Assembly (NCBI GenBank): GCA_035529075.1 | Contig: DATKXK010000005.1 | Coordinates: 196,981 to 260,980, forward strand | Length of the DNA stretch: 64,000 nt | Direction of reading: 5' to 3' | Origin: Acidobacteriota bacterium | GTDB lineage: Bacteria; Zixibacteria; MSB-5A5; GN15; FEB-12 | Shown here: piece after piece, positions 3,287-30,249 of the stretch | Numbering within the stretch: the stretch's first letter is position 1 | Layout: every line of letters begins with the position of its first letter | Translations under genes and position numbers: made by a program | The notes under the pieces: model-generated | Seen by the model: only the letters and a program-made list of their open reading frames with translations | What the model was told of the DNA's origin: nothing | The model's database searches: none

Positions 3287-3336
3287 AAGTTACCGGTTGT
3301 GGCCCTAATGTAAACAGAGGATAACGAGGCAAGACC

Positions 3337-4422
3337 ATGGCTCACAGGATATTCAACTTTAACCCGGGACCATCCACTCTTCCGCTGGATGTCCTGAAGA
3401 TCGTACAGGAAGAACTGCTGGATTATCAGGGTACGGGCATGTCCGTGATGGAGATATCGCATCGCTCGCCCCAGTACTCGGAAATCAACACCGATGCCGC
3501 TGCCCTGCTGCTTGAGGTGATGGGTCTCTCCAGCAAGTACAAGGTGCTGTTTCTTGGCGGCGGCGCCTCGACGCAGTTCGCAATGATTCCGCTCAACTTT
3601 CTTCCGGCCGGCAAAACCGCCGCCTACGTCGACACCGGTTCCTGGGCCTCGAAGGCCATCAAGGAGGCCAAAATCGTCGGCAACGTGCACCTGGCCGCCT
3701 CCTCCAAGGAGCAGAAGTATACGCGCATCCCCAAACCGTCGGAAATCGATATCCCGTCCGATGCCGCGTACCTGCACCTGACGTCAAACAACACCATCTA
3801 CGGTACCCAGTATCACGAGTGGCCCGACCTCGCCGGCGTGCCCCTGATGTGCGACATGTCCTCGGACATATGCTCCCGGCGGCTGGACTTCAGCAAGTTC
3901 TCGCTGATCTATGCCGGCGCCCAGAAGAACCTCGGTCCGGCCGGGGTGACGGCCGTCATTGTCCACGAGAGCCTGCGGGAGCGCTGCAAGGACGGTAATC
4001 TGACCATGCTCGACTACCGCACCCACTGGGAGAAGGACTCCCTGTTCAACACCCCGCCCGTGTTCGGCGTGTACGTCGTGAAACTGGTCCTGGAGTGGAT
4101 CAAGAAGCAGGGCGGGCTGGAGGCTGTCGAGAAGGTCAACGTGGCCAAGAAGAGCCGCATTTATGACCTGCTGGATCGTTACCCGGACTACTACCGGGGA
4201 ACGGTCGAGCCGGACAGCCGGAGTTGGATGAACCTGACGTTCCGCCTTCCGAGCGAGGACCTGGAGAAGAAGTTCATCGCCGAAGCGACGGCGGCGGGCA
4301 TGGGCGGACTTAAGGGGCATCGCAGCGTGGGTGGTGTTCGTGTCTCTCTTTACAACGCGATGCCGCTTAAGGGAGTTGAGAAGCTGGCTGAATTCATGGA
4401 GGCGTTCAAGAAGGCCAATTGA
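3337..4422 (+). CDS. serC: Phosphoserine aminotransferase
   Basis: N-terminal FNFNPGPSTLP, the YAGAQKNLGPAGVT block with the PLP lysine, and a 361-aa length are classic for SerC. Confidence 0.92.
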   Translation: MAHRIFNFNPGPSTLPLDVLKIVQEELLDYQGTGMSVMEISHRSPQYSEINTDAAALLLEVMGLSSKYKVLFLGGGASTQFAMIPLNFLPAGKTAAYVDTGSWASKAIKEAKIVGNVHLAASSKEQKYTRIPKPSEIDIPSDAAYLHLTSNNTIYGTQYHEWPDLAGVPLMCDMSSDICSRRLDFSKFSLIYAGAQKNLGPAGVTAVIVHESLRERCKDGNLTMLDYRTHWEKDSLFNTPPVFGVYVVKLVLEWIKKQGGLEAVEKVNVAKKSRIYDLLDRYPDYYRGTVEPDSRSWMNLTFRLPSEDLEKKFIAEATAAGMGGLKGHRSVGGVRVSLYNAMPLKGVEKLAEFMEAFKKAN

Positions 4423-14147: not shown

Positions 14148-14279
14148 GATCGTTGCCGGTTCTACCCAACCCTTGCCTGTCCAAGGGACAGAGACAGGAG
14201 GGGGAGGTAAGTCATGTTCATGTGTTATAACACGACCGGTCTGGTGCGTCTTGTTTGAGGGACACAAAGGGAGGGAGTT

Positions 14280-16083: not shown

Positions 16084-16887
16084 TCAGGGCTGCTGGGCGA
16101 CGCGTAGCGTATCGAAAAGGGTCACCACAATCGTCCCGAACTTTCCGCTGAGCTCCGGCAGCGAGATGTTGTCCGGACGCTGGTCGGGCAGCGGCACCGG
16201 GAGCAATCCGCTGGTCAGGGAGGAATCGGGCGTGCCGGTAAGGGCGTAAACGTACAGGTTGTACAGGCCGGTGTCCGGCTCGACCCCGCCGCTGAGTGCG
16301 AAGGCTTCGGGAGGAATGGTCTGGTCGTCGGCATATTTGCTGAACCCGTACCCGGTGTACACGGAGTCGCTCAGCACGGCGGCGATAACGAAAACCTCGG
16401 CCCGATTGCTGGTGCTCCATTCAAGCGACGCCTGGTCATTGCCCTGAATGAGCCGATTGGTCGGCACGACATTGGTGATCGTGAAACTGTCGGCTACGTT
16501 GACGGTGGTCGCGTACGCAAGCTCGGTGCCGTCCTGTACCTCCAGCGGCAGTAACGAGTCGGTAAAAACATACGGTGAATCGGTCATCAACCAGTAGGCG
16601 GAGTCCAGACACTGTTCGCAGGCCTCAAACGGGAGCGTTCGCCCCGCCAGGCTGACCTGGCCGGTGGTCACGATGTGCTCCCCGCGTTCCAGCCTGACCA
16701 CCACCTTAAGGCTCTTCGAGATGGGGTTGGACGCCAGATTGGGGTCAACCACCAGCGCACCGCTAATGCCGTAGGTTTCCTCGTCCGTCTTGACCGGACT
16801 GTCATTGCACCCTGAAGCGGCCGTGAGCAGCGCAAGGGCGACCAGGGTGAACAGCCATCGGCTCGTCTTTAGGCAGGTCTCAACCAT
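16084..16887 (-). CDS. Hypothetical lipoprotein
   Basis: The signal peptide carries the lipobox AASGC. The gene is co-directional with murQ and immediately upstream of it. I recognise no family. Confidence 0.55.
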   Translation of the reverse strand: MVETCLKTSRWLFTLVALALLTAASGCNDSPVKTDEETYGISGALVVDPNLASNPISKSLKVVVRLERGEHIVTTGQVSLAGRTLPFEACEQCLDSAYWLMTDSPYVFTDSLLPLEVQDGTELAYATTVNVADSFTITNVVPTNRLIQGNDQASLEWSTSNRAEVFVIAAVLSDSVYTGYGFSKYADDQTIPPEAFALSGGVEPDTGLYNLYVYALTGTPDSSLTSGLLPVPLPDQRPDNISLPELSGKFGTIVVTLFDTLRVAQQP

Positions 16888-17302
16888 ACGTTACCTGTAT
16901 CGGCAGGAAGATCGAGCGGATTTACCGGAATGTCCAGAGTAACCGATGCGCCGAAAAACACGCGTCTGTGCTCGCGGCGGAGCGCACCCGGTCACGGGAC
17001 AGGCCCGTTTCGGGAGTCACGGCGGGCGCTGCCCGGAATGACGGCTAATCAGCCCGCCGGCAAGATGCCCTGTCAGGGGTCCTCTTTTCTTCCAGCATGG
17101 AGGTAGAGTCCCAGGGACAGCGATTTGGGCGCCATCCAACTAACCCGTTGCCATTCCGCCACTTACTGCGTTCGGCCAGCGATTTGCCAATTAATGGTGT
17201 CTGGCGACTGTTAGTTTTCCGGTTCAGATTCCGATATGGAAAGATGAATGGGCGGAGGTCAATATCATAGCCAAACCCAAGGTTCAATTAAGGAGGATTG
17301 CC

Positions 17303-18487
17303 ATGAAGAGTATGGCGAGGATTGCATTGGGCGTTGTCTGTCTGGGCCTGCTAGCGGTATCCAACGCGCCGGCCACGGACACAGGTTCATTCGATCTGAA
17401 CTGGTACGGGTCTCTCAAACTCGACGGTTCGTGGGATGAAAACCTTACCAGCCACGGCAACTACGTCATGTGGATCAACCCGCGGGTGTACAACGGGGAT
17501 GACGAACAGTTCAACATGACGGCTAACGAAACTCGTTTCGGTCTCAGCATCACCGGAGATCCCTCGCGGGATATCGCCGTGTCGGGACAGCTCGAATTCG
17601 ATCTGTACGCCGGTGCTGCCGCGGGGGCGATCGCGGAGAATCAGGCAATGTTGCAGTTGCGGCATGCCTACTTCACCCTGGAGATGGAAAACACGCGCAT
17701 TGTCGCAGGTCAAACCTGGGATATGATTTCTCCGTTGAACCCGACCACGTTGAATTATTCGGTACTGTGGGGATGTGGCAACATCGGTTACCGTCGCCCG
17801 CAGATCAGCCTCTGGCACACCCTCGATACCGGTCCGGTGACGGAAGTTACCGTGGCCGCCGGGTTCTACCGCACGATCGGCAGCGATCTGACACCGACCT
17901 TCACCCTTGCCGCCGGTGAGTTCAGCGACGGGGACGAGGACGGTGCGGACGCCGGGATACCTTCGTTCCAGGGACTCTGCGAGGTTGACCACCAGTTTGC
18001 CTCCGGTACTTCTCTCAGGCTCGGTGCCTCCGCCCTGTGGGGCCGGTTGAAGGCCGAGACCACGTTGGGGAACTCTGCGACGTACAAGACCTGGGCGGCG
18101 TCAAGTCACATGGCGCTGACGTGGCCGACCGGGTTCGGGATCTCCAGCGAGCTGTTCACGGGAGAGAATCTGGGCAGCTACTACGGTGGCATTCTCAACA
18201 CGAATGTCGTGGATGGTCTGGCGACCGTCGGCGGCTGGGTTTCTGTCTGGATGTCGCCCTCGGATCCGGTCAAGCTTTCGGCCGGTATCGGCATGGATGA
18301 TCCGGACGATGATGAGTTGGGTGTGGCCAGTCGCGCCAAGAACCGCTGCGTCTGGGGTAACATCCGCTACGCCGTTGTCCCGCAGGCCACCATCGGCTTC
18401 GAGCTTTCACAGTGGAAAACGCAATATAAGGACGCGGGCAGTGTGGCCAGCCTGCGTGCCCAGACTTCGTTCATTCTCGAGTTCTAA
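17303..18487 (+). CDS. Putative outer-membrane beta-barrel porin
   Basis: AGGAGG precedes the ATG. A signal peptide, alternating amphipathic beta-strand pattern and C-terminal ...SFILEF (terminal Phe) are present. Confidence 0.65.
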   Translation: MKSMARIALGVVCLGLLAVSNAPATDTGSFDLNWYGSLKLDGSWDENLTSHGNYVMWINPRVYNGDDEQFNMTANETRFGLSITGDPSRDIAVSGQLEFDLYAGAAAGAIAENQAMLQLRHAYFTLEMENTRIVAGQTWDMISPLNPTTLNYSVLWGCGNIGYRRPQISLWHTLDTGPVTEVTVAAGFYRTIGSDLTPTFTLAAGEFSDGDEDGADAGIPSFQGLCEVDHQFASGTSLRLGASALWGRLKAETTLGNSATYKTWAASSHMALTWPTGFGISSELFTGENLGSYYGGILNTNVVDGLATVGGWVSVWMSPSDPVKLSAGIGMDDPDDDELGVASRAKNRCVWGNIRYAVVPQATIGFELSQWKTQYKDAGSVASLRAQTSFILEF

Positions 18488-18524
18488 GGTGCAGCTTCGG
18501 CTGCCCGAGAGGACATTGACTAAA

Positions 18525-18552
18525 ACGGCAGGACCGCTGACGGTCCTGCCGT
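18525..18552. terminator. Bidirectional intrinsic terminator between convergent genes
   Basis: A 12-bp stem ACGGCAGGACCG / CGGTCCTGCCGT with a 4-nt loop is flanked by AAAA on the 5' side and TTCTC on the 3' side. Confidence 0.6.
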
Positions 18553-18627
18553 TTCTCATGCCCTTCCGATAATTCAAAACGCCGGGCTTGGCGGGCGTCG
18601 GACAAGCGGCGGCGCGGGTCCGGAGCG

Positions 18628-18840
18628 CTAGCCGCCGTCACAGGAATCGGCCGATGGCCGGAGAAACGTCTTCTTCAAGACGATTTCTGCGGGACAGAAC
18701 TTCGTCAGCGCCGACTGAAGGAGGTTCAGCCCGACAAACGCGGCCAAAAGGAGCCCGTACGGGGACACGAAATAGTACAGTGTCAGCGACAGCAGGACCA
18801 GCGTGCCCGCGAGAAGTCTAATGGTGTTTTCCGGTGTCAT
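18628..18840 (-). CDS. DUF2892 (YgaP-like) small membrane protein
   Basis: ATG 18840 has AAGAGG upstream. There are two hydrophobic helices and the conserved C-terminal ...LTKFCP motif. Confidence 0.7.
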   Translation of the reverse strand: MTPENTIRLLAGTLVLLSLTLYYFVSPYGLLLAAFVGLNLLQSALTKFCPAEIVLKKTFLRPSADSCDGG

Positions 18841-18913
18841 ATAAAGCCTCTTTTCCACGCTGCTTGACGATCAGGTCAGGCGACGTTCTTCTGTATCTCG
18901 AACCGTGAGTATC

Positions 18914-20191
18914 TTAAAACCCGTAGGTGACTTTCAGGTAGGCGTTGTCATTCTTCTGAAACTGGCCGAATTCGGTGTTTTCATGGCTGCCGCCAAAGAT
19001 GTTCCCGCCCACGGCGAGAGCAATCTCGTCCGTGTGCTTGTACCCGAGGCGCAGCCTGATATACGCGTCCTTGTCGGTCGGCGAGAAGAACGCGAAGGCC
19101 GAGAGGCTCAGGTTCTCGTCCATCAGCAGTCTGGTAAGGCGCGACGTGACGAGGTGGCGGAATTCGTCGCGGACAAAAAGACCTGCCGGCTGCTGAGCCG
19201 CGAACTTGTCATAGTCCGTCATCCAGTCGATCTGCCACTGAGCGTTCACCGTCAGGTTCGCGGCGATCTGTCGTTCGTACCCGATCATGGCGGTGGCCGC
19301 TGAGTTCGGGATCAACGGGTTACCGCCGCACCTGTCTTCGCGGGAATCGAAATACCCGCCCTCGATCCAGAGCACTCCCTGCCAAACGGCCCCGCGCGCG
19401 GACGCTCCGTAAACGTTCAGGCGCGGATAGTAGGGAGTCAGCCGTCCGTCAACCGTCATTGCACCCACGGGGTTCTTGTAAAACCCCCTGTAGAAATACA
19501 GGGCCGTGGCGAAGTTGCCCACCTGCCGCTGGAATCGCAGTGCTGTCTCTGCGTTTTCAAATCTCGATGGCGGCCTCGGCGGCTCGAAATAGAATGTGTC
19601 GTCGGCTCCCGTGCCGACGATACCCGGAGCCCACGGCGCGGCCGGAAACGGGCTGTAATAGCTGAGCCGCCGCCCGGTCGGCAGGCGATTGGGCTCGAAG
19701 TTCGGCGTCCAGACGGCGTTGACGTTTCCCAGCGGGTGGTAGTACTCGACGCGAACCGCGTTCTGAGGGGCTTTCAGGTACTGATCATCCCTCCCGATGA
19801 AGAACGACCGGTAGTCCTTGGCGAAAACGTCGTTTATGAATATGAGGTCGCCGGTTCCCCAGGTGAGGACCTGGCGGCCTATCTTGAAGTCGAAGTTGTC
19901 ACCGAGCACGAATTTGAGGTATCCCTCGCGCAACTCCCAATCCAACCGGCTGGAGTCGGCGCCATCGTACACGAAATCCAGGCGGCCGAAAAACTCGCCC
20001 GCGTCGCCGAAATGTTCCGCGCGGAGCTGCAAACGCGTTTCCGAGGCCGTGTATTCGGTCGACGTGGGATTGTCCTTGTCCAGGCGGCCGCCGTAGAGCC
20101 CCTGCAAAAATCCGCCCCAGGTCACGTCGGCCCGGGAAACACCCGTCAGCACGAGGATCAGAGCAAACATTACCGCTGCTATCTGTTTCAC
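18914..20191 (-). CDS. Outer-membrane beta-barrel protein (DUF1302 / alginate-export-like)
   Basis: A signal peptide, the GRQVLTWGTGDL block and C-terminal ...KVTYGF are present. Confidence 0.65.
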   Translation of the reverse strand: MKQIAAVMFALILVLTGVSRADVTWGGFLQGLYGGRLDKDNPTSTEYTASETRLQLRAEHFGDAGEFFGRLDFVYDGADSSRLDWELREGYLKFVLGDNFDFKIGRQVLTWGTGDLIFINDVFAKDYRSFFIGRDDQYLKAPQNAVRVEYYHPLGNVNAVWTPNFEPNRLPTGRRLSYYSPFPAAPWAPGIVGTGADDTFYFEPPRPPSRFENAETALRFQRQVGNFATALYFYRGFYKNPVGAMTVDGRLTPYYPRLNVYGASARGAVWQGVLWIEGGYFDSREDRCGGNPLIPNSAATAMIGYERQIAANLTVNAQWQIDWMTDYDKFAAQQPAGLFVRDEFRHLVTSRLTRLLMDENLSLSAFAFFSPTDKDAYIRLRLGYKHTDEIALAVGGNIFGGSHENTEFGQFQKNDNAYLKVTYGF

Positions 20192-20207
20192 CTGCCACCT
20201 CCACCGG

Positions 20208-21035
20208 TTACTTGATGAACTTGCGCGGAGGGTTCTTGAGGTATCGCTCCGTGAACAGGTCGTCCGGAACGTCCTGGTTGTAGGCGATCTTTGAGAACGT
20301 CACGACGGTCTTGCTGCCCTTCTTGAGATCCTCCATACTGCGCGCCGTGACCGTCAGGATACCGTCGACCTCCTCGATCTTCTCCGCCGTAAAGACCCGG
20401 GTCATGGTACCGTTCTTGTCGAAGTACTCCTCCTTGAGCGGCAGGTATGTGTTCTTGTCGATATAGGAGATCTTGCGGCTGAACCCGTTGTAGGGTTGAT
20501 TGGGTATTGACTCGATGACAAAGACCGTGGTGCCGTTCAGCTCGGCCTCGCCCGTCAGCGTATGGCTGTCTTCGGTCCAGTGGCGCCCGGAGACGTCTTC
20601 GTAGGAGAAATCGGACCCGACGAAGCTCGAGTTCTTGTCGTCGGCGGAGATCGGTTTTATCAGGTCGACGGCCGGAACGTAGATCCATCTCATGTCGTTG
20701 CCGTCGGACGTCTTGTGGACCATGAAGGTAAGCCGGGCAACGTCGGACGGTTTCCTGAAGTACGTGTAGTATTTCTGGTTGCCGCCTTCCTCCACGTCAA
20801 GGCGCAGCATGGTGAATTCGCGGCGACGCTCCTTGCCCCTCTTGTCCGTGATGGTCATGGTCACGTCGGCAGTGCCGTCATCACCCGCGTAGTAGTAGGC
20901 GAGGTGGGATTTTTCCATGATCCCGGCTGCATCCTCGGCTGACGCGGCCAGCGCAAAGACTACGACGGCCATCAGCGAGCTTGTTAAGTAGCGAGTCAGG
21001 TTTCTCATCGTTTCCATCCTTTTCTTATTTGTCAC
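20208..21035 (-). CDS. LolA-like outer-membrane lipoprotein-sorting protein family
   Basis: A signal peptide is followed by the ...YYAGDDG...ITDKRGKERRREF...Y..F..P.DV pattern typical of the LolA_like family that accompanies RND/MMPL exporters. Confidence 0.75.
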   Translation of the reverse strand: MTNKKRMETMRNLTRYLTSSLMAVVVFALAASAEDAAGIMEKSHLAYYYAGDDGTADVTMTITDKRGKERRREFTMLRLDVEEGGNQKYYTYFRKPSDVARLTFMVHKTSDGNDMRWIYVPAVDLIKPISADDKNSSFVGSDFSYEDVSGRHWTEDSHTLTGEAELNGTTVFVIESIPNQPYNGFSRKISYIDKNTYLPLKEEYFDKNGTMTRVFTAEKIEEVDGILTVTARSMEDLKKGSKTVVTFSKIAYNQDVPDDLFTERYLKNPPRKFIK

Positions 21036-21038
21036 GTG

Positions 21039-23393
21039 TTATTGATTCTCGGTTTTCAGGGCCTTGGCGCTCGATGGCTCAGCCGTCACGGCGCGGACCG
21101 GCACGGCGAAGAGCGATTTGCTGAAGGTGCGGGCTATCGCCGGCAGAAGCAGCATGGTCACCAGACCGGAGATGACCATAATGGCGAGGAAGAAGGAACC
21201 GACCGTGATATACGGCACCAGCGTGGAGAAGAGCATGGGCACGAAACCGATGGCGATGACCAGCACGTTCCGGCCGATCGCCCTGCCGGCCCCCTCGAAT
21301 ATCTCACGGAAGGACTCCCTGAAGTCCTTCGTGCGGGCATGAACCATGCGGAGTCGCTGGATGAAGTGTATGGCAAAGTCGACCGACAGCCCCAGCGTCA
21401 GAGAGGAAAGCACCGCCACCGGCATGTCGTACGGCTTGCCGATGAAACCTATGAAGCCGTAGATGGCCATGATCGTGATCGACAGCGGCAGCATCGAGAT
21501 GACCCCCCACCGGAATGACCGGAAGAGGAATATCATCATGAGGAAGACCACGGCGTAGGAACCGAGCAGCGAAGAACGCATGCCCGTGACCATCTGACGC
21601 TGCCATTCGACGTTGATATAGGGCAGCCCGGCCCAGTGGACCGTCACACCCGGCGGCGGCGGGTTCGAGGCCAGAAAACGCGTGCCGCGCTCAACGACGC
21701 CGGAAACGGCGCGATTGTCGCCGTTCTTTAATTGCACCCAGACGTTGGCCTTGTCGTATCCGGGCGTCACGAACTTGAAGAGGTCGTCGGGATCACCGCC
21801 CGACAATTCGAACAGGAAGAGCAACTGGGCGATTTCCTGCCGGGATTCGGGCAGGGCGAGCCTGGACGAGTCCGCGCCGAACAGCTCGTATCGGACCTTC
21901 TTGACAATGTCGGTCAGGCCGGTGGTGGCCCCTACAATGTCTTCCTTCTCCAGTTCGCGCTGGAAAGATTCCATGTAGACTGCGACCTGCGGAGATTTCA
22001 TCAGGTCTTCCTCGTCACCCTGAAAAACGAGGTAATTCACGTACGTGCCGGCCAGGTGCTGATTCATGGCTGTATCGGCGACGCGGATGGGGTGGGAGCG
22101 CTTGAACCACTTCACGGGGTTGTCGTTGACCTCAATCATGGTGAGACCGACGACGGCGACGACGACGACCGCCGCCGCAGCGCCGATAATGCCCTTGTGG
22201 TGCCGGTAAGAGAAGTCGCGAAACGCGTGCATGGTTCCGGTCAGCAGGCCGTGCTGATCGTCAACGGCCCCAAAATTGCGCAGTGTCCGGGTCGATATCA
22301 GCATGGCGATGGCCGGATTCAGGGTGATCGAGAGCAACCAGGCGACAACGATGCCGAAGGCCACGAAAATGCCGAACACGCGTACCGGGGGAATCGGGGT
22401 CAGAGCCAGGGAGAGAAACCCGGCCACGGTGGTCAACGAGGTGAAGAGCATGGGTACGAACAACTCGTTGATCGAGTGGCGGATGGTCGAGTCCTTGTGC
22501 TTGTATCGTTTATAATGATCGTGGAATTCGGAGATGATATGGATGGAGTTTAATACGGCGATGGGAATCAGGAAAATGGGTATCATGGAGGACATGATGT
22601 GCACGGTATTGCCCGTCAGGATAAGCAGTCCCATCGACCAGATCACCGACATCAGGGCGACCACCATGGGGGCGAGAATGATCTTGATCTTTCTGAAGAA
22701 CAACAACAGCAGCAGGAAGATGATGAGCATGGCGGCAGGCGCGCTGTAGGCCATCTGGGCAAACATCTCCGCGCCAAAGGAGTCTTCCGCCAGCGGCAGT
22801 CCCGCAATGTGATACTCGGCGTCGCCGCCGTGCCTGTCTATGATATGACGAATTTCTCCGGCGATCCGGTGCGACATATCCTTCGATTCGATAGGTATGA
22901 AAAGCGCGACCGCCTGGCCGTCATCGGAGGCCAGCTTGCCGCGCAGAATCGGGTTGTCGAGAATGCGCGTCAGGATATACGCGGCCTCTTCATCCGAGGC
23001 GATCTCCCCGCCCATGAGCGGCTTTACGACCAGCATGCCGCCCGGTCCCTGTTCGATGTCATCGACGGTCGAGGGAGCCAGTATGTCCCGGACAATCACG
23101 CCGTCGATCTGGAGTATTTCAGCCGTAATCCGGTAGATGCGGTTGAGCATGTCCGCCGTGAAAGCGGTCGGCTGTTTCACGACGCCGACGGCGATGAAAT
23201 CGTGCAGGTCGAAATCTTCCTTGGTAGCGCTGTGCAGCAGGCGGGTGGGCTCGTCCGACTCCAGCATGTTCTGCGGATCGGTGTCAATCTTGATCCTGGG
23301 GAATTGGGCGGCAAAAAAGGCCGTCACCGCCACGGCAATGGCGATGACCAGCCACGGTCGTCGTATAGAGAAATCCGTCAGTCCCTTCTTCAT
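21039..23393 (-). CDS. RND-superfamily MMPL-type exporter (COG1033-like)
   Basis: 784 aa with two blocks of about 6 TM segments, each following a large periplasmic loop, and SSD-like regions. Confidence 0.85.
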   Translation of the reverse strand: MKKGLTDFSIRRPWLVIAIAVAVTAFFAAQFPRIKIDTDPQNMLESDEPTRLLHSATKEDFDLHDFIAVGVVKQPTAFTADMLNRIYRITAEILQIDGVIVRDILAPSTVDDIEQGPGGMLVVKPLMGGEIASDEEAAYILTRILDNPILRGKLASDDGQAVALFIPIESKDMSHRIAGEIRHIIDRHGGDAEYHIAGLPLAEDSFGAEMFAQMAYSAPAAMLIIFLLLLLFFRKIKIILAPMVVALMSVIWSMGLLILTGNTVHIMSSMIPIFLIPIAVLNSIHIISEFHDHYKRYKHKDSTIRHSINELFVPMLFTSLTTVAGFLSLALTPIPPVRVFGIFVAFGIVVAWLLSITLNPAIAMLISTRTLRNFGAVDDQHGLLTGTMHAFRDFSYRHHKGIIGAAAAVVVVAVVGLTMIEVNDNPVKWFKRSHPIRVADTAMNQHLAGTYVNYLVFQGDEEDLMKSPQVAVYMESFQRELEKEDIVGATTGLTDIVKKVRYELFGADSSRLALPESRQEIAQLLFLFELSGGDPDDLFKFVTPGYDKANVWVQLKNGDNRAVSGVVERGTRFLASNPPPPGVTVHWAGLPYINVEWQRQMVTGMRSSLLGSYAVVFLMMIFLFRSFRWGVISMLPLSITIMAIYGFIGFIGKPYDMPVAVLSSLTLGLSVDFAIHFIQRLRMVHARTKDFRESFREIFEGAGRAIGRNVLVIAIGFVPMLFSTLVPYITVGSFFLAIMVISGLVTMLLLPAIARTFSKSLFAVPVRAVTAEPSSAKALKTENQ

Positions 23394-23571
23394 ACTCCAT
23401 CCTCTTTCCTGGGCGGTTGATGTTTCCAGTGTTAGATGGGTCTCGGACAGAAATGATTCAGATTTTTTCGCGGCTGACGGCGGCGCGTAAGCTGTTGGCG
23501 CGGGCTAAGAAAGCCGGTGTGGGCGGAGTGGGGGAAAGGAACCGAGGCCGGTTGTGGAGGTTATGGAAGGC

Positions 23572-23826
23572 TCAGGGCTTCCGGCCGAACTTCTTTTCCC
23601 ACCGTTGCTTGAGCAGGGCGTTGAGTTTGCTTTCGAGAGACGGCGGTAGCGGTTCGGGTTTGCCATCCCGGCACAGACTGACCGTCATCTTCATGGTGTC
23701 CACCATGATACGGCAATTAGTGCACTGGCTGAGGTGTTTCCTGATCTCGGCACAAAGCTCAGGATCGATCTCGCCGTCGATATAATCGCTGAGATCCTCA
23801 ATGTATTCTTCACAATGTCTTGCCAT
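23572..23826 (-). CDS. Zinc-binding (ZAS, zf-HC2) anti-sigma factor, short cytoplasmic type
   Basis: The start is trimmed to ATG 23826 (MARHCEEY...), giving a 17-nt overlap with the sigma gene. The HLSQCTNC sequence fits H-x3-C-x2-C. Confidence 0.72.
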   Translation of the reverse strand: MARHCEEYIEDLSDYIDGEIDPELCAEIRKHLSQCTNCRIMVDTMKMTVSLCRDGKPEPLPPSLESKLNALLKQRWEKKFGRKP

Positions 23827-24406
23827 AACTTCCCTCGAATACTTCTGCCAGAAAATCGCGCAGAGCCAGCCGGGCACGAAGAATTCTGGACTTGGTCGCC
23901 GCCTCGCTCTCGCCGATCAGCCGGGCCACTTCTTTGACCGACAACTCTTCGACATAGCGCAACAGGAACGCCTCGCGATACTTGTACGGCAGTTCGCCTA
24001 TGGCCTTGTCAATCACGCGTCGTAACTCCGCCGTTTCGAGCTCCTGGTGGGGGTCGTGCCAGTCAAAGAGCTGATGGTCCTCGGGGCCGGCGCCGTCGGA
24101 ATGGCCGGCCGGCAGGTATTCCTGAAGCGGTTTGAGATCCACCTGTTTTCGGCTTGCGTACAGCGCTCGCGACTCGTTCAGGGCGATGCTGTACAGCCAG
24201 GTGCCGAACGACGACTCCAAGCGAAACTGGTCAATCTTGTCAACTGCCTTCAGGAAGGTTTCCTGCACGATGTCCTCGGCGTCCTGCTTGTTGCCGGCCA
24301 GTCTCCGGGCCAGACCGTAAATCCTGTTCTTGTGCCGGCTGAGCAGCTCCGAAAAAGCGTCAAAATCACCGGCCTGGGCTCTCTGGACAAGTTCCCGTTC
24401 ACTCAT
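23810..24406 (-). CDS. ECF-type RNA polymerase sigma-70 family factor
   Basis: The start is trimmed to ATG 24406 (MSERELV...). Region 2 is DAEDIVQETFLKA...FGTWLYSIA and region 4 is LSVKEVARLIGESEAATKSRILRAR. Confidence 0.88.
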   Translation of the reverse strand: MSERELVQRAQAGDFDAFSELLSRHKNRIYGLARRLAGNKQDAEDIVQETFLKAVDKIDQFRLESSFGTWLYSIALNESRALYASRKQVDLKPLQEYLPAGHSDGAGPEDHQLFDWHDPHQELETAELRRVIDKAIGELPYKYREAFLLRYVEELSVKEVARLIGESEAATKSRILRARLALRDFLAEVFEGSYGKTL

Positions 24407-24619
24407 ACGATTTAAATATAGACAAAACGATTCAAAGTTTATATCAAAAAGGAGCGGGTGGCAGAAGCAGACCGCGGGTGCATCATGTGTCTTCTCCGCA
24501 CGCGGGGCCGCGACCGCCGGTACGCCGCTTTGCCGCCGGCCGTGACTGAAAGAATACGGCCCCGGCGGCGATGTTGAAATATGCAAGTCGCGGGAACCTT
24601 TCACGCGGCTACCGGGTAA

Positions 24620-24719
24620 TGAATAGAGGGTTGGCGATTGGACTGACTCCTTGACGTGACACCATATCGCCGACTAGCCCCGTGCCGACTCCCTCCCCCC
24701 CGGCACGGGGTACATTTTT
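24620..24719 (+). ncRNA. Candidate small RNA, copy A of a three-member tandem family
   Basis: TAGAG block at 24624-28. Stem 1 is GGCGAT/ATCGCC (24633-38 / 24666-71). The 10-bp stem CCCCGTGCCG/CGGCACGGGG (24678-87 / 24701-10) has a 13-nt loop ACTCCCTCCCCCC and is followed by a T5 run ending at 24719. The 5' end is not determined. Confidence 0.45.
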
Positions 24720-24883
24720 CCGGTCATTTCCACATTTCGCGGAGAAGGAAGAACTCCGTTGGGGTCAGCGCAGAGCGTACACGGCGGCTCGGCGCGCGTC
24801 GCGGTTCGCGGCCGGGAGCGCATCCCGGAGTCCGTGTTTCTCTTCCATTGGCCGAGTCTCGGGGAACATTTTCACGCCCGATT

Positions 24884-24988
24884 TTGTAGTAGAGTCTGAT
24901 AGGCGGCTGGAATGACTCCTCGAACGACATCAATGCCGCCTTTGGCCCCGCGTCGATCCCCTCCCCCCCGGCGCGGGGCACTTTTTTT
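24884..24988 (+). ncRNA. Candidate small RNA, copy B
   Basis: TAGAG at 24890-94. Stem 1 is GGCGGC/GCCGCC (24902-07 / 24935-40). The stem CCCCGCGTCG/CGGCGCGGGG (24946-55 / 24969-78, one G-U pair) has the loop ATCCCCTCCCCCC and is followed by a T7 run ending at 24988. Confidence 0.45.
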
Positions 24989-25084
24989 GTGGCTTTGCTG
25001 GACCCACTATGTTGATTATTTACAGGCTCTTGAGGGGAATCTGGGAAAAAGACCGGCCGGCCGGGAACATCTCGCGCCCAAACA

Positions 25085-25190
25085 TTGTAGTAGAGGCTGA
25101 CTGGCGGCTGGACGGACATCGGGATATGACAACCATGCCGTCAGTCGACCCCGGGCCGTCTCCCTCCCCCACGGCACGGGGTTTCTTTTT
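25085..25190 (+). ncRNA. Candidate small RNA, copy C
   Basis: TAGAG at 25091-95. Stem 1 is GGCGGC/GCCGTC (25103-08 / 25137-42, one G-U pair). The stem CCCCGGGCCG/CGGCACGGGG (25149-58 / 25172-81, one mismatch) has the loop TCTCCCTCCCCCA and is followed by TTTCTTTTT ending at 25190. Confidence 0.45.
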
Positions 25191-25263: not shown

Positions 25264-26661
25264 TTAGAACTTGACCCAGCGCGGGACCCTGGGGAAGGGG
25301 AGGACGTCGCGGATGTTGGCCATGCCGGTTATATACATGATGGCGCGGTCGAAACCGAGGCCGAACCCGGCGTGCGGAACCGAACCCCACCTGCGAATGT
25401 CCAGGTACCAGAAGTAGTTGTCGAAATCCGTGATGCCCTTGGCGGTCATTCGATCCTTCAGAACGTCGTAGCGGTCCTCGCGCTGGGAACCGCCGATAAT
25501 CTCTCCCACCTTGGGTACGAGCACGTCCATGGCGCGGACCGTCTTACCGTCGTCGTTAACCTTCATGTAGAAGGACTTGATCTCTTCCGGGTAGTCATAG
25601 ACAATGACCGGTTTTTGGAACGTCTTTTCAGTCAGGTAGCGTTCGTGCTCCGATTGCAGATCGCGTCCCCAGCCGACCGGGTACTCGAAGGGTTCACGGG
25701 CCGACTCGAGGATTTTCACCGCCTCCGTATAGGTGAGGCGCTCGAACTCCGACGACGCAACCGCCTCCAGCGTCCGGCATACGTCCTTGTCGATCCACTT
25801 GCTGAAGAACGCCATTTCGTCGGCGCAATCCTCCAGCGCGAAACGGAAGAGTGACTTCACGAAGTCCTCAGCGAGGTCCATGTTGTCGTCGAGCTCCGCC
25901 CAGGCCATTTCCGGCTCGATCATCCAGAATTCGGAGGCGTGACGGCTGGTATTGGAGTTCTCGGCTCGAAAGGTCGGCCCGAACGTATAGACGTCACCAA
26001 GGGCGGTGGCCAGAAGCTCGGCTTCGAGCTGGCCGGAAACCGTCAGAAAAGTCTCGTGGGCGAAGAAGTCGGCATCCCAGTCGACCTGGCCGTCCTTGCG
26101 CGGCACGTTTGACGGGTCAAGGCACGTGACGCGGAACATGTCGCCCGCGCCCTCTGCATCGGAGGCTGAGATAATAGGCGTGTGGATGTAGTAAAAGCCC
26201 CGCTCGTAGTAGTACCGGTGGATGGCGTAGGCAAGCTTGGAGCGGATGCGATTGACGGCACCGAACGTGTTGGTGCGGGGACGCAGGTGTGCGATCTCGC
26301 GAAGGAACTCGAACGAATGGCGTTTCTTCTGCAGCGGGTAGGCTGAGTCGGCATGGCCCACCACGTCGAGCGTGTCCACGGCCACCTCGTACTTCTGCCC
26401 CTTGCCCTGTGAGTGGATCAGACGACCACTGATCCGGACCGCCGCGCCGGAGAGTATCTTTTCGACGAGGGGAAACTTCTCCGGGTCGTTGACGACCCCC
26501 TGGATATTGCTCATGCAGGAGCCGTCGTTTACGTCAACGAAAGCAACCGCCTTGCTGACGCGGGCGCTGCGCACCCAGCCGAGGATTATGACCTGGGAGT
26601 CGACGGGGACGCTGTCATCGACTAGAATGCGGGCAATCTTTGTCCTCGATTTGTAATCCAT
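25264..26661 (-). CDS. asnS: Asparagine--tRNA ligase
   Basis: The start is trimmed to ATG 26661 (MDYKSRTKI...). An N-terminal OB fold, the class II motifs and the AsnRS-typical FRAENSNTSRHASEFWMIEPE are present. Confidence 0.9.
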   Translation of the reverse strand: MDYKSRTKIARILVDDSVPVDSQVIILGWVRSARVSKAVAFVDVNDGSCMSNIQGVVNDPEKFPLVEKILSGAAVRISGRLIHSQGKGQKYEVAVDTLDVVGHADSAYPLQKKRHSFEFLREIAHLRPRTNTFGAVNRIRSKLAYAIHRYYYERGFYYIHTPIISASDAEGAGDMFRVTCLDPSNVPRKDGQVDWDADFFAHETFLTVSGQLEAELLATALGDVYTFGPTFRAENSNTSRHASEFWMIEPEMAWAELDDNMDLAEDFVKSLFRFALEDCADEMAFFSKWIDKDVCRTLEAVASSEFERLTYTEAVKILESAREPFEYPVGWGRDLQSEHERYLTEKTFQKPVIVYDYPEEIKSFYMKVNDDGKTVRAMDVLVPKVGEIIGGSQREDRYDVLKDRMTAKGITDFDNYFWYLDIRRWGSVPHAGFGLGFDRAIMYITGMANIRDVLPFPRVPRWVKF

Positions 26662-27050
26662 TTTCGGTCCTTGTGCCCTGTGTGAGTCACGTGCCCCTTG
26701 ATCCGGGGCCGCGGGCGGCCGACAGGGCCACTGGCTAATAATAGCAGAAATGCCCCTAAGCGCAATATATAAGGAGTAATAGCCGCCCGTCGGGGTCGGG
26801 CCCGATCCTTTTTGTGCCCCGGATGGAACTTCCAGCTCTATCGGACGTATACACAGGTACACAAGAAGGGTTTTGCTCCTAGCGGCGAAAGCCGAACACT
26901 TCCTGACCTATCATTCGCGTTCGCCGCCGGCCCGTAACGGCCGGCGGCGAACTTTGTTGTGCCCATTCGTTACCTGCTGGTCGGGATTCTGCGTCGGGAG
27001 GCCGGTGGAGCCCTGGTTCGCCGCGTGCCGCACGCGGGCGAGCGGCGACA

Positions 27051-29552
27051 CTAATTATTCTGACATTCCTCTACCAGGGAGCGATAGCGGCTTATAAGGC
27101 GCGACGTGTTCTGCTTCGACGTCGATTCGGCCAGAATGTTGAAGGAGGCCCTGAAACGGTCCGGTGAGACCAGGACCCAGCTGTCGTCCTCGAGAATCCG
27201 TACGCCGTCGACCAGCTGCCGCTTCTTGCTGCTGGAGTCGGTGATCAGTCGGCGCATTACCAACCCCTTCTTGGACCAGGGGCAGGGCACCGAGACGCTT
27301 GCGCGCACGTATTGTTCGAACTTCTGGCGCAGTTCTCCGAACCTGGTGTTGGCGTGGGTCATCATTTCGAGAATCTTGGCCGTGGTCAGGATGGCGTCGG
27401 AGCCGGTCTGGAAGCCCGGGAAGATGAAGCCACCCCTTGTCCCGCCGACGAAATCAGCTTTTCCCTGCCGGCGGGCTTCCATCATGGCCAGGTGAGCATC
27501 GGCCACTCGAATGACCTCGACCCCGTGCTGCCCCGCGATTTCCTCGACTCCCATGGAAGCGCTGATCGGCACCGCGATCGATCTCGGGCGCTGCGCTCGG
27601 ATGTACAGTTCGGTAACCAGCAGGAGAAGCAACTGACTGTCGACCGGCTTGCCCCGTTCGTCGACCACGGTCAGTTTCTCCGCAGTCGGGTTGAGCGCGA
27701 TCCCGAGGTCGGCCTTCAGAGACGTGACAATAGCCGAGAGCTGGACAATCGACTGCGCCTGTTCCGCCGAAGAGGTCGAGAACTTGCGCGGATTGAGACT
27801 GGCGTTCAACTCGGTGGCGGTCACCCCCAGTATGGAGAAGAGCGTGGGGAAGATCTGCGACGAAGAACCGTTGGAGTGGTCGATAACGAGCTTGAAGGCG
27901 GCATTGCGGATCGTCTTGACGTCTATCTCGGCCAGGAACGCGTGGCGATAGTCCTCGATGACGCGCTGGGGGGTGTCGAGATGGCCGATCGTGTCCAGGG
28001 TTGCGCGCTCGAAATCCTCGCCGAAGTAGTTCCGTTCAATCTTTTTCAGCTTCGCCGTTGGCATGTCCAGCCCGCTACCGTCAAAGATGATGATGTCAAG
28101 CTGACGGTAATCGTCGGGGTTGTGCCTGACGTACATGCCGGCGGCATATTTCCCCTTGGTCAGGGCAAAGCGCACCACCGGAATCGGCATGGTCTCGAGG
28201 TCCGAGACGTTGACGCCGGAGGCCAGCAGTCCGGAGATGAAACTGCGGCGAAGCAGACGGGAGATGTCCGAGGCGTCCCGGCTGGTCACGACCGCCGCAC
28301 CCCGGCCCAGTGAGGCACCGAAAGCCGCCCCGAAGCGAACGCACATCTCCGGGCTGATCTCGGTCAGGGCCAGGCCCGTCACTTTCGAGTCCGTGAACAG
28401 TTCCCGGTTCCACTTCTCACCCCAGACCAGGGAACTGGAGACTATGGCCCCATCGTCGACTCTCTTGGCCGGCCAGATTTTGCAGTTGGCCTTGATGGTC
28501 GATTCGTCGCCGAGAACGCAGTCGTCAGATACGATGACGTTGTCCTGCAACTGGACGTTCTTGCCCAGCCAGGAACGCCCGCATATAATGGCACTGCTGG
28601 CCACGCTGTTGGGGCCGATGGTCACATCCGGCCAGATCGTGGTGTCCTTGAGTCGACACCGGCGGCCGATCCGGCTCCGCTGGCCGACCGTGCAGTTCTG
28701 AAGTCTGGCTCCCGGCTCCACGACGACGTCATCGCCGAGGATGACCGTTCCGGCCAGCTCAACGTCCTCTTCGACACGAACATTGGCCCCCTTGAACACG
28801 ACGCCGCCGTCCAACGCAGTCCGCTCGACTTTCAGATCGAGATTCATGAGTCCGGCGTACAGGTCCTGATGCACGCGCCGGTATTCGTCAACGTTGCCGA
28901 CGTCCTTCCAGTAGCCGTCCATAACCTTGCCGTACAGTCTCATTTTCCGGGAAAGCATGAGCGGATACAGGTTCTGCGAGAAGTCAAAGTCCTGGTTGGC
29001 GGGAATCAGTTCGACGGTGCCCGGCTCCAGGATATAAATGCCGGTATTGATGGTATCGGAGAAGGCTTCGCCCCAGCTCGGCTTTTCCAGAAACCGGACA
29101 ATGCGACCGTCAGATTCGGTGAGGACGATTCCATAGCTGAGGGGATTCTCGGCGCGGGTGAGCAGAATCGTGGCCTCCGAGCCGCGCTCCCGGTGCCACT
29201 TTATAGCTTCCGCCAGGTCGAAATCGGAGATCAGGTCGCCCGAAATAACGATCACCGTTTCGTTGATCTTGTCCAGAGCGCACCGGACGGCTCCGGCCGT
29301 GCCGTAATCGTCATCCGGCTGACGGTACTTCATGTTGACCCCGTAAGCGCTCCCGTTGCCGAAATGAGCCCTGATGGCGTCTCCCTGGAAGTACAGCAGC
29401 GAAGTGACGTCGGTGATGCCGTGCCTGGTCAACAGCGTGACCACGTGCTCCATCATCGGCAGGTTGCCGACCGGCACCATCGGCTTGGGGATATTAATGG
29501 TGAGCGGCCGCAACCTGGTGCCGAACCCCCCCGCCATTATAATCGCTTTCAC
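27051..29552 (-). CDS. Sugar-phosphate nucleotidyltransferase fused to a left-handed beta-helix and a phosphohexomutase-like C-terminal domain
   Basis: The start is trimmed to GTG 29552, with GGAGGG at 29562-29567. MAGGFGTRLRPLT...KPMVP is the NTP-transferase motif and hexapeptide repeats follow. The C-terminal half is collinear with PGM/PMM but its catalytic motifs are altered (see findings). Confidence 0.82.
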   Translation of the reverse strand: MKAIIMAGGFGTRLRPLTINIPKPMVPVGNLPMMEHVVTLLTRHGITDVTSLLYFQGDAIRAHFGNGSAYGVNMKYRQPDDDYGTAGAVRCALDKINETVIVISGDLISDFDLAEAIKWHRERGSEATILLTRAENPLSYGIVLTESDGRIVRFLEKPSWGEAFSDTINTGIYILEPGTVELIPANQDFDFSQNLYPLMLSRKMRLYGKVMDGYWKDVGNVDEYRRVHQDLYAGLMNLDLKVERTALDGGVVFKGANVRVEEDVELAGTVILGDDVVVEPGARLQNCTVGQRSRIGRRCRLKDTTIWPDVTIGPNSVASSAIICGRSWLGKNVQLQDNVIVSDDCVLGDESTIKANCKIWPAKRVDDGAIVSSSLVWGEKWNRELFTDSKVTGLALTEISPEMCVRFGAAFGASLGRGAAVVTSRDASDISRLLRRSFISGLLASGVNVSDLETMPIPVVRFALTKGKYAAGMYVRHNPDDYRQLDIIIFDGSGLDMPTAKLKKIERNYFGEDFERATLDTIGHLDTPQRVIEDYRHAFLAEIDVKTIRNAAFKLVIDHSNGSSSQIFPTLFSILGVTATELNASLNPRKFSTSSAEQAQSIVQLSAIVTSLKADLGIALNPTAEKLTVVDERGKPVDSQLLLLLVTELYIRAQRPRSIAVPISASMGVEEIAGQHGVEVIRVADAHLAMMEARRQGKADFVGGTRGGFIFPGFQTGSDAILTTAKILEMMTHANTRFGELRQKFEQYVRASVSVPCPWSKKGLVMRRLITDSSSKKRQLVDGVRILEDDSWVLVSPDRFRASFNILAESTSKQNTSRLISRYRSLVEECQNN

Positions 29553-29580: not shown

Positions 29581-30249
29581 TTAGTCTGCCAGCATGTCCA
29601 TTTCGAGCATGCGGGTGCTGACCTCAAAGAAATCGGTAAAGCCAGTATAACGAATATTCTCTCGGAGGCAATACTGTTCGAGGTCTTTTTTGGCAAAAAC
29701 GACGTCCGCCTCCCTGGTTGCGCAGGCATCCGAGAGACCGTCACCCACGAAGACAACGAGGCAATCGGAGCCGACTCCGGCCCGGTATTCAGCGATGCGC
29801 TCACCCTTGCAACTGCCGCATCGGCGGCACTCGCGGTTGACGTACGGGAATTCGATGCTGATGCCGTCACCGACAAGGCGCCCGACGTTTGACAGGAACT
29901 TAAGATCGGAGTGCCCGTGGCGGTCCAGAAGGTACCTGATATAAAAGTCCAGGCCCTCCGATACGATGATCGGGTCCACCCGGTTACGGCGGCAGAGTTC
30001 CGCAAACCGTGAGAAGCCGGGATCGAGACTAAACCGGTCGAGAAATTCGTGGATCTCTTTCGGGGTGGCGTGCACCATGGCGGCTTCGCGCAGCAGGCAT
30101 TCACGGGTGGAGATGCGCCCTTCCATCCAGTCCGGGATCAGTTCGTCGTTCCTGCCGCCGGAGAAATGGTTAAACAGCGTGTACCCGATGTCGGTCGTCG
30201 CGACCGTACCGTCGAAATCGCAGAATATCAGGAGGGGCTTCTTTCTCAT
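29581..30249 (-). CDS. HAD-IB family phosphatase, MtnX-like
   Basis: Contains the DFDGT motif I, the CRRCGSCKG cysteine cluster seen in MtnX-type proteins, and the late GDGLSD motif. Confidence 0.72.
   Translation of the reverse strand: MRKKPLLIFCDFDGTVATTDIGYTLFNHFSGGRNDELIPDWMEGRISTRECLLREAAMVHATPKEIHEFLDRFSLDPGFSRFAELCRRNRVDPIIVSEGLDFYIRYLLDRHGHSDLKFLSNVGRLVGDGISIEFPYVNRECRRCGSCKGERIAEYRAGVGSDCLVVFVGDGLSDACATREADVVFAKKDLEQYCLRENIRYTGFTDFFEVSTRMLEMDMLAD

Follow-up and report, generated by a model that had tools for sequence, protein, structure and literature searches.

The stretch of DNA analysed here (64,000 nt of contig DATKXK010000005.1, referred to as the window) contains a gap of 857 nt between the stop codon of asnS (25264, minus strand), the product of which carries the tRNA-synt_2 domain and an OB fold, and the start of a gene encoding an extracytoplasmic function (ECF) sigma factor (24406, minus strand). 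The plus strand of this gap carries three paralogous modules, copies A (~24592-24719), B (~24862-24988), and C (~25063-25190), the last of which converges on the asnS stop codon, and each of them is predicted to encode a small RNA (sRNA) of a previously undescribed family. The gap, its borders, and the three copies on the plus strand had been reported in an original prediction made from the sequence alone, and are confirmed by the coordinates, the alignment, and a repeat finder.

The copies share a mean column identity of 79% over an alignment of ~150 columns, and the repeat finder grouped 24677-24719, 24945-24987, and 25148-25190 as a 43-nt family with 84% identity. Each copy forms a first stem (stem 1; GGCGAT/ATCGCC in A, GGCGGC/GCCGCC in B, and GGCGGC/GCCGTC in C), followed by a hairpin whose G+C arms of 10-11 bp, with one mismatch in copy C, enclose 13 nt, and then by a run of 5, 7, and 5 T residues in A, B, and C, respectively, found on the plus strand only, much as had been predicted. 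The covariation claimed for stem 1 is also upheld, given that RNAalifold, run on the three paralogues alone, finds 24 pairs, of which 5 are doubly changed. The folding z-scores of copies A, B, and C are -4.4, -1.6, and -2.1 on the plus strand, and -0.6, -1.0, and -1.4 on the minus strand; copy A has a minimum free energy of -43 kcal/mol, and it is in A alone that the fold clearly beats its own shuffles. Each terminator loop holds CCCUCCCCC, and CCCTCCCCC occurs three times in the two strands of the window, once in each terminator loop. A covariance model built from the three copies (R1) scores A, B, and C at 111.9, 103.7, and 114.9 bits. The motif GACTCCT, which had been noted in loop 1 of copies A and B, is present there, and in these two copies alone, but the corresponding GACUCCU is not conserved among the homologues in the family alignment.

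Table 1. Features of the sRNA locus and of the adjoining sigma factor cluster (positions are those of the window).
Feature	Position	Strand	Details
Promoter-like element A	24592-24621	+	-35 GGGAAC 24592-24597, 18-nt spacer, -10 GTAATG 24616-24621
Predicted sRNA A	24625-24719	+	~95 nt; stem 1 24629-24675; terminator hairpin 24677-24711, arms 24678-24687/24701-24710 (I8); T-run 24715-24719
Terminator loop A, C-rich	24688-24700	+	ACUCCCUCCCCCC
Promoter-like element B	24862-24891	+	GGGAAC, 18-nt spacer, GTAGTA
Predicted sRNA B	24894-24988	+	stem 1 24901-24907/24935-24941; terminator hairpin 24945-24979, arms 24945-24955/24969-24979 (I10); T7 24982-24988
Terminator loop B, C-rich	24956-24968	+	AUCCCCUCCCCCC
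Promoter-like element C	25063-25092	+	GGGAAC, 18-nt spacer, GTAGTA
Predicted sRNA C	25095-25190	+	stem 1 25099-25146; terminator hairpin 25147-25183, arms ~25149-25158/25172-25181; T5 25186-25190
Terminator loop C, C-rich	25159-25171	+	UCUCCCUCCCCCA
ECF (group 4) sigma gene	23810-24406	-	Sigma70_r2 + Sigma70_r4_2; divergent from the sRNA genes
Anti-sigma factor, 84 aa	23572-23826	-	zf-HC2 7e-12; HxxxCxxC zinc motif; hydrophobic segment absent; RsrA-like, soluble
MMPL/RND transporter	21039-23393	-	member of the sigma cluster
LolA-like protein	20208-21008	-	member of the sigma cluster
DUF1302-like protein	18914-20191	-	member of the sigma cluster
Lipoprotein, 266 aa	16087-16863	-	no Pfam match; further along the cluster

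When the model from the three copies was searched in relatives, 14 distinct homologues that keep both helices and the C-rich loop were recovered from related Zixibacteria-type contigs, with one copy per locus, and the triplication is specific to the present genome. Seven of them (L001, L002, L081, L083, L084, L085, and L087) come from loci collected through the synteny of AsnS, i.e., independently of the RNA sequence, and one homologue was found in each. The others (L088, L089, L091, L099, L101, L105, and L113) were added by a metagenome scan for a pattern with a fixed loop and 3' arm, which returned 29 contigs, including L091 and L113, which show the gene order of the window, L114, which is L083 recovered again, and L090, which is the contig L082; the remaining contigs are unrelated hairpins. 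A second model (R2), built from all 17 sequences, found none further over 77 loci (0.67 Mb), which include distant Zixibacteria (L003-L005, 67% AsnS identity) and other phyla, and the family appears so far to be limited to one clade of Zixibacteria-type genomes.

Paralogues are 66-71% identical to one another and 56-76% identical to the orthologues, and, given that they are as distant from each other as from the orthologues, the duplication must be either old or fast-evolving, with the structure kept in every copy. In the alignment of the 17 sequences, 93.7% of the cells pair, a value that falls to 35-48% in controls with the 3' partners slid 1-3 columns along, and 12 of the 24 pairs are doubly changed (8 of 13 in stem 1), which extends the covariation seen among the three copies. 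The covariation score is 0.338, in comparison with 0.03-0.10 in the slid controls, and none of 500 shuffles reaches the observed value. The terminator hairpin is present in 17/17 sequences (96.8% of the cells paired), all with a T-run, and its stem varies at 5 of 11 positions, four of them doubly changed. The most conserved segment is the terminator loop of 13-14 nt, in which CCCUCCCCC is invariant, the seven synteny-derived homologues included. An invariant loop on a helix that accepts substitutions is the pattern typical of a sequence read in single-stranded form. The apex of stem-loop 1 is variable, and is replaced by a UUCG-capped hairpin in L002 and by a short hairpin in L088.

A promoter-like element, GGGAAC-N18-GTA(A/G), lies upstream of each copy (Table 1). 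The broader motif GGGAAC-N17-19-GTAR has three matches in the window, one upstream of each copy, where 0.44 would be expected, and none of 100 shuffles reaches three. In the family as a whole, RAAC-N17-19-GT[A/T] is present in all 16 members for which the 5' flank is available, with the consensus (G)G(G/A)AAC, a spacer of 17-19 nt (18 nt in 12 of the 16), and GT(A/T). The element keeps a fixed distance to stem 1 in spite of the divergence of the spacers, and A-rich tracts are frequent upstream of it. A position-weight matrix derived from these 16 promoters and scanned over the window scores copy A at 22.0, B at 28.9, and C at 26.7. The TAGAG block, which the original prediction had counted as part of each module, is present, but it continues the -10/+1 portion of the promoter-like region (GTAGTAGAG) and is not clearly within the RNA. 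Given the position of the promoter, the transcripts would start near the first positions listed for the sRNAs in Table 1, and would be ~95 nt long. With a conserved promoter-like element and a terminator to itself, each copy looks like a separate transcription unit, as had been proposed.

The family element combines a GGAAC-like -35 with a (C)GT-like -10 at a spacing of 16-19 nt, the definition applied here to ECF promoters, and its sequence has the shape of the promoters of ECF (group 4) sigma factors. It resembles the consensus of sigmaW of B. subtilis, TGAAAC-N16-CGTA. In Corynebacterium and Mycobacterium, the experimentally defined consensus of sigmaE/sigmaH is GGAAC-N18-19-GTT (PMC10012870). 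The product of the sigma gene next to the sRNAs matches TIGR02937 above the cut-off, and the models that it resembles best are SigW/RpoE-like, all below their curated cut-offs; its orthologues adjoin the sRNA in L083, L084, L091, L101, and L113. The anti-sigma gene is conserved downstream of the sigma gene, and the best match of its product is antisig_RsrA (1.7e-9, below the cut-off). The link with an ECF sigma factor and envelope stress that the original prediction had suggested is strengthened, as far as the sigma factor is concerned, by the ECF-type motif and the divergent synteny, but, since the anti-sigma factor is of the soluble, zinc-containing RsrA type, the signal sensed may be cytoplasmic (thiol/redox) rather than a classical envelope stress.

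Synteny was established by tblastn of the proteins of the window against the loci that bear the sRNA, together with called genes. The ancestral order, asnS -> / <- sRNA / ECF sigma -> anti-sigma -> MMPL/RND -> (LolA-like, DUF1302-like, 266-aa lipoprotein), is kept in the window, L091, L101, and L113. In L083 and L084, NmrA-like and AraC-like genes separate asnS from the sRNA, which nonetheless remains the immediate, divergent upstream neighbour of the sigma gene, so that the sRNA is divergent from the ECF sigma/anti-sigma/MMPL operon in six loci (the window, L083, L084, L091, L101, and L113). Five loci lack the sigma operon: L001, L081, L085, and L088, where the sRNA lies between asnS and the lipoprotein gene, and L002, where the upstream neighbour is a small open reading frame (ORF) for a membrane protein. 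The RNA gene is tied to this neighbourhood and not to a single gene.

No family of Rfam 15, including LhrC, RsaE, 6C, MicA, and RybB, gives a match at the gathering scores anywhere in the window (cmscan), which agrees with the statement of the original prediction that the sequences fit no known RNA. In a permissive cmscan, the best-scoring family, Pseudomon-1/ErsA (RF01719), reaches 28.1, 19.1, and 15.4 bits over the full length of the model, against a gathering score of 50, and ar14 (RF02344) reaches 21 bits on copy B, against 58.8. When the whole window is searched, the best ErsA match has E = 0.21, and the sole other match at E <= 1 is a probable chance match of malK-III elsewhere. Membership in ErsA/Pseudomon-1 was rejected on these scores, the likeness extending only to the terminator and the overall architecture; the weak match is explained by the Rfam consensus of ErsA, whose terminator loop is also CCCCUCCCC. 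Membership in the ar14/cuckoo family was rejected in the same way, and the CUCCU of loop 1 is found in copies A and B alone, and not in the homologues. To judge from these comparisons, the sRNA family belongs to no Rfam 15 family and is previously undescribed.

The paralogy, the structure with its covariation, the conservation of promoters and terminators, the synteny, and the absence from Rfam are all computed directly. In every aspect that sequence data can probe, the interpretation offered in the original prediction is supported. The reading that we consider probable, while leaving appreciable room for others, is that the modules are three paralogous, independently transcribed genes for ~95-nt, ECF-sigma-dependent, trans-acting sRNAs that use the C-rich terminator loop as their seed. 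Transcription of each copy would run along the plus strand from its own ECF-sigma-type promoter (GGGAAC-N18-GTA) to its own intrinsic terminator, yielding an RNA with a short 5' tail, the long covarying stem-loop 1, and a terminator hairpin that displays the invariant CCCUCCCCC in its loop of 13-14 nt. This loop, an anti-Shine-Dalgarno core (CCUCC) with C-rich extensions, would be the seed that pairs with the G-rich ribosome-binding regions (GGAGG, GGGAGGG) of target mRNAs, which may block the initiation of translation or alter the stability of the mRNA. Sites of the GGAGG type are in use in this genome, with AAGGAGG or CAGGAGG before the starts at 4610, 17303, 46774, 58472, and 61073, and a loop that contains CCUCC could therefore occlude them. 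The site singled out in the original prediction, GGGAGGGAG at 14269-14277, does lie directly before the ATG at 14280, as the Shine-Dalgarno sequence of an exported protein with no Pfam match. The three copies would raise the dosage, and their differing loop-1 sequences could diversify the targets. The divergent ECF sigma factor, restrained by the soluble zinc anti-sigma factor, would transcribe the sRNAs, which may in this way form the post-transcriptional arm of the ECF sigma stress response. The transcription, the identity of the sigma factor, the seed function, the targets, and the direction of the regulation are what we infer from the computed features.

Several observations weigh against this reading, in whole or in part. 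In the scan of the window with the position-weight matrix, the best site other than the three copies (21017-20984, minus strand) scores 10.9, and the maxima of the shuffles are 11.6-21.8. The GGAAC-N18-GT motif was not found upstream of the sigma gene in the six loci, and an autoregulatory promoter that would link the motif to the adjacent sigma factor is accordingly absent; five other loci (L001, L002, L081, L085, and L088) have the sRNA with an intact promoter and no adjacent sigma gene. RNAduplex comparisons of the loops with the starts of the orthologues of the nucleotidyl-transferase/phosphoglucomutase (NTP-transferase/PGM) fusion gene, asnS, the sigma gene, the MMPL gene, and the 266-aa lipoprotein gene revealed no conserved complementarity, and the scan for targets over 64 kb is underpowered, a G+C-rich loop finding G-rich matches easily. 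The alignment used for the covariation was fitted to the model, which biases its counts in favour of the structure, but the same picture emerges from the slid controls and from the raw sequences. In 7 of the 14 homologues, the loop and the 3' arm were fixed by the pattern, so that the conservation of the loop in these is by construction.

The region upstream of the sigma gene has a conserved block of its own (24415-24436, minus strand, in the window), which consists of an invariant T-rich tract with TTTGAATC, 8-10 nt, and TATATT, and ends 8-11 nt before the ATG, with no Shine-Dalgarno sequence; the same is seen in L083, L084, L091, L101, and L113. Such a block points to a promoter of the housekeeping type, and to a sigma mRNA with little or no leader, rather than to ECF autoregulation. 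Autoregulation of sigE is rare in corynebacteria (PMC10012870), and the lack of an autoregulatory promoter does not therefore contradict the assignment of the sRNAs to the adjacent sigma factor. Given the different block upstream of the sigma gene and the lack of further sites in the matrix scan, this assignment depends on the class of the promoter and on the divergent synteny, which is no more than suggestive, and the adjacent ECF sigma factor is the most plausible candidate for driving the sRNA genes.

A fairly unlikely but credible alternative is that the RNAs bind or titrate a protein (a C-rich-RNA-binding protein, a KH-domain protein, or a chaperone), or that the loop pairs with another non-coding RNA, in which case the copies would simply provide more sites. 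An invariance over 9 nt is tighter than most sRNA seeds require, no conserved mRNA target was found among the neighbouring genes, and the best complement of the loop in the window is the conserved non-coding block with GACAGGAGGGGGAGGTAA, described below, and not the ribosome-binding site of a conserved gene. Set against this, the conserved neighbourhood has no gene for a candidate binding protein, and the G-rich block and the loop do not clearly co-vary (only ~6 bp in the pair L087/L118). The C-rich loops of RsaE, RoxS, and CcsR act by base-pairing. The same is true of those of LhrC (PMC4132741). A role in cis, as a terminator or insulator between the convergent asnS and the divergent sigma operon, or as a source of interference or antisense RNA, appears very unlikely. 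At 10 loci, the hairpin is convergent with asnS, at a few tens to ~400 nt (mostly 75-150 nt) past its stop, and the candidate for a terminator of asnS itself (25221-25202, minus strand) is weak, but the element is conserved in L083 and L084, where it lies two genes away from asnS, the T-run is found solely on the strand opposite asnS, and neither the conserved promoter, stem 1, and invariant 13-nt loop nor three tandem copies are needed for termination.

Hardly any credence attaches to the view, raised as an alternative by the original prediction, that the modules are a dispersed repeat (of the repetitive extragenic palindromic, REP, type or similar to a miniature inverted-repeat transposable element, MITE) or a generic terminator that occurs here three times by happenstance. 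Hairpin units repeated in tandem in an intergenic region are what such a repeat would look like, but R1 and R2 find just these three copies in the window, all at one locus, CCCTCCCCC occurs nowhere else in it, related loci have exactly one copy each at the same syntenic position (~0.67 Mb searched), and the copies are 29-34% different with the pairing retained; this reading is already largely refuted. It is just as improbable that each unit is a 5' leader, an attenuator, a riboswitch, or a gene for a small peptide, although an AraC-family gene does lie downstream on the same strand in L083 and L084. In the window and nine other loci, the next gene downstream is the convergent asnS, which leaves nothing to attenuate, and, as most loci have no co-oriented gene downstream of the sRNA, a role as leader or attenuator is excluded there. 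No riboswitch or leader family of Rfam matches the units, and neither a start codon nor a reading frame is conserved in the alignment, in which CCATGCC alternates with CCATACC, CCATATC, and CCGTATC. The leader and peptide-gene readings are essentially refuted.

The loop duplex scan of the window gives as its best non-self site GGAGGGGGAGG at 14197-14207 (-25.3 kcal/mol), which shares a single intergenic region with the next best, 14269-14277. The first lies within a conserved non-coding block (14148-14262, plus strand) downstream of a TPR gene, which comprises a covarying terminator hairpin, a 6-bp hairpin (CUGUCC..GGGACAG), and a G-rich motif, (A/U)GA(C/U)AGGAGGGG(G/A), represented in the window by GACAGGAGGGGGAGGTAA at 14193-14210; this motif is the best complement of the C-rich loops in the whole window. 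The block follows the orthologous TPR gene in L085 (9150-9345, minus strand), L117 (3353-3633), L118 (3356-3611), and L119 (3344-3636; these three on the plus strand), and it persists where the gene at 14280 is absent, the other loci adding ~150-250 nt that end in a terminator-like hairpin. No ORF is conserved in the block among the loci compared. An ORF of 14 codons, MFMCYNTTGLVRLV (14215-14259, plus strand), lies at Shine-Dalgarno distance after the G-rich block and just upstream of the gene at 14280, in the present genome only, and, as its ATG is absent from L085, it is probably fortuitous. In L087 and L118, which derive from the same metagenome, the loop CACCCUCCCCC of the former and the block AGGAGGGGAAUG of the latter would form only ~6 bp. 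Given the lack of clear co-variation with the loop, the block is treated as no more than a lead: it might act as a sponge or other partner RNA, or have no connection with the sRNAs.

A second sRNA-like unit (26824-26959, plus strand) points away from the start of asnS (~26661) and towards the end of the convergent NTP-transferase/PGM gene. Counterparts are found in L083 (~3700-3852, minus strand), L091 (~3220-3372, minus strand), L084, L001, L002, L081, L085, and L087. The unit has a promoter-like (G/T)G(A)AAC-N16-18-CGTAT(A), which in the window is TGGAAC...CGTATA (26824-26851), a conserved single-stranded segment, UUCC(C/U)(A/G)ACCUAUCAUUC (26900-26916), and, ahead of a T-run, a terminator hairpin that covaries (26919-26952); it has no match in Rfam. 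As its promoter is of the same class as those of the C-rich-loop RNAs, a shared sigma factor is suggested. An unlikely extension of the sRNA reading is that the three RNAs belong, as a single node, to a small and conserved stress circuit of several RNAs in Zixibacteria, that the ECF sigma factor, controlled by its zinc-binding anti-sigma (ZAS) factor, drives two families of sRNAs that flank asnS, the one with the C-rich loop and the one with CCAACCUAUCAUUC at 26824-26959, and that the RNA element with the G-rich AGGAGGGG (14148-14262) serves as a conserved sponge or decoy of the loop, instead of or besides ordinary ribosome-binding sites. If true, this two-family circuit would be the first riboregulatory network for the uncultured Zixibacteria, with an sRNA-sponge pair in one neighbourhood.

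The sigma gene opens a conserved cluster (16087-24406, minus strand), in which the anti-sigma gene overlaps the sigma stop, and the 266-aa lipoprotein gene at the far end still adjoins the sRNA at the loci without a sigma operon. On the opposite flank of the sRNAs, the longest ORF of asnS (25264-26862, minus strand) has 532 aa with a GTG start at 26862, ~67 codons beyond all the homologues (465 aa), and translation most likely begins at the ATG at 26661; the additional codons would overlap the second sRNA-like unit. Directly upstream of asnS lies the gene for a nucleotidyl-transferase/LbH (GMP-like) protein fused to a phosphoglucomutase/phosphomannomutase (AlgC-like) (27051-29552, minus strand), which is kept in L081, L085, and L087, and has a longest ORF of 1017 aa, against 828-833 aa in the homologues. 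The weak malK-III match (29762-29859, minus strand, E = 0.24) is upstream of the likely start of this fusion gene, and is probably due to chance. A parallel between ErsA and algC through the start of the fusion gene was considered and rejected, the complementarity being weak and unconserved (-17, -14.9, -5.1, and -11.2 kcal/mol).

The closest relatives of AsnS are in metagenome-assembled genomes (MAGs) of Zixibacteria (73-81% identity), and proteins identical to AsnS and the TPR protein (P0001, P0121) are deposited as 'Acidobacteriota bacterium' (MAG, Third Party Annotation, TPA). The Acidobacteriota label of the source MAG is probably wrong, since Zixibacteria is the label borne by every close relative, whether of AsnS, the sigma operon, or the RNA family. 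Regulatory RNAs are not known to have been described in Zixibacteria; a full-text literature search for 'Zixibacteria' together with 'small RNA' returned nothing relevant. The family and its promoter provide a testable entry to stress regulation in an uncultured phylum of the Fibrobacteres-Chlorobi-Bacteroidetes (FCB) group, in which the conserved promoter motif could also be used to predict the sigma regulon in MAGs.

Among the systems with which the family may be compared, the CcsR1-4/alpha-r14 cuckoo RNAs are tandem homologous sRNAs with anti-Shine-Dalgarno loops of the CCUCCUCCC type, under the control of stress sigma factors. The cuckoo RNAs have the C-rich motif in two loops, whereas a single C-rich loop is conserved here, and CcsR is processed from the 3' untranslated region of a DUF1127 gene under RpoHI/II, whereas each copy here appears to have its own promoter. 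In RsaE/RoxS of the Firmicutes and RepG of Helicobacter, C-rich or C/U-rich loops pair with Shine-Dalgarno sequences or G-rich leaders, and the seed of RepG is its terminator loop. Unlike the present family, however, these RNAs are single-copy and have ResDE/Rex/SrrAB as regulators, and no Rfam match connects them with it. The ErsA RNA recognises its targets, algC and oprD among them, by base-pairing of the single-stranded region at its 5' end, and is not known to use its terminator loop for this purpose. It shares with the family the ECF-type promoter, the 5' tail, the internal hairpin, and the terminator hairpin, with the consensus loop CCCCUCCCC, but its host is a gammaproteobacterium, and not a member of the Zixibacteria. 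The promoter on which ErsA depends is that of the ECF sigma factor sigma22/AlgU (PMC13613067). The MicA and RybB RNAs exemplify an ECF sigma factor that drives sRNAs as the repressing arm of a stress response (PMC13613067), the role envisaged here, but they have seeds at the 5' end that are not C-rich, depend on Hfq, and bear no sequence relationship to the family.

Finally, the LhrC1-5 RNAs of Listeria are induced by envelope stress, and bind the Shine-Dalgarno region of lapB through the UCCC motifs of loop A and the terminator loop (PMC4132741). Like the present family, they have several copies, four of them clustered at one locus, a length of ~100 nt, two hairpins, C-rich motifs in the loops, and a terminator loop that helps to bind the Shine-Dalgarno region of the target (PMC4132741). 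They have no relationship to it in sequence or in Rfam, are driven by the two-component system LisRK and not by an ECF-type promoter, and belong to the Firmicutes, in contrast with the Zixibacteria; their motif is UCCC in an A+U-rich RNA, in comparison with the 9-nt CCCUCCCCC here, and they have three redundant motifs, where only the terminator loop is conserved in the present family. The family resembles LhrC, RsaE/RoxS, CcsR, and ErsA in its would-be mode of action, but is a member of none of them, and represents a new family within a familiar class of regulators, without revealing a new principle. It provides a further, independent example of a recurrent design, in which sibling RNA genes have promoters of the stress-sigma type and a C-rich loop serves as a mimic of the anti-Shine-Dalgarno sequence, and it supports the view that such a design arises convergently in distant phyla.

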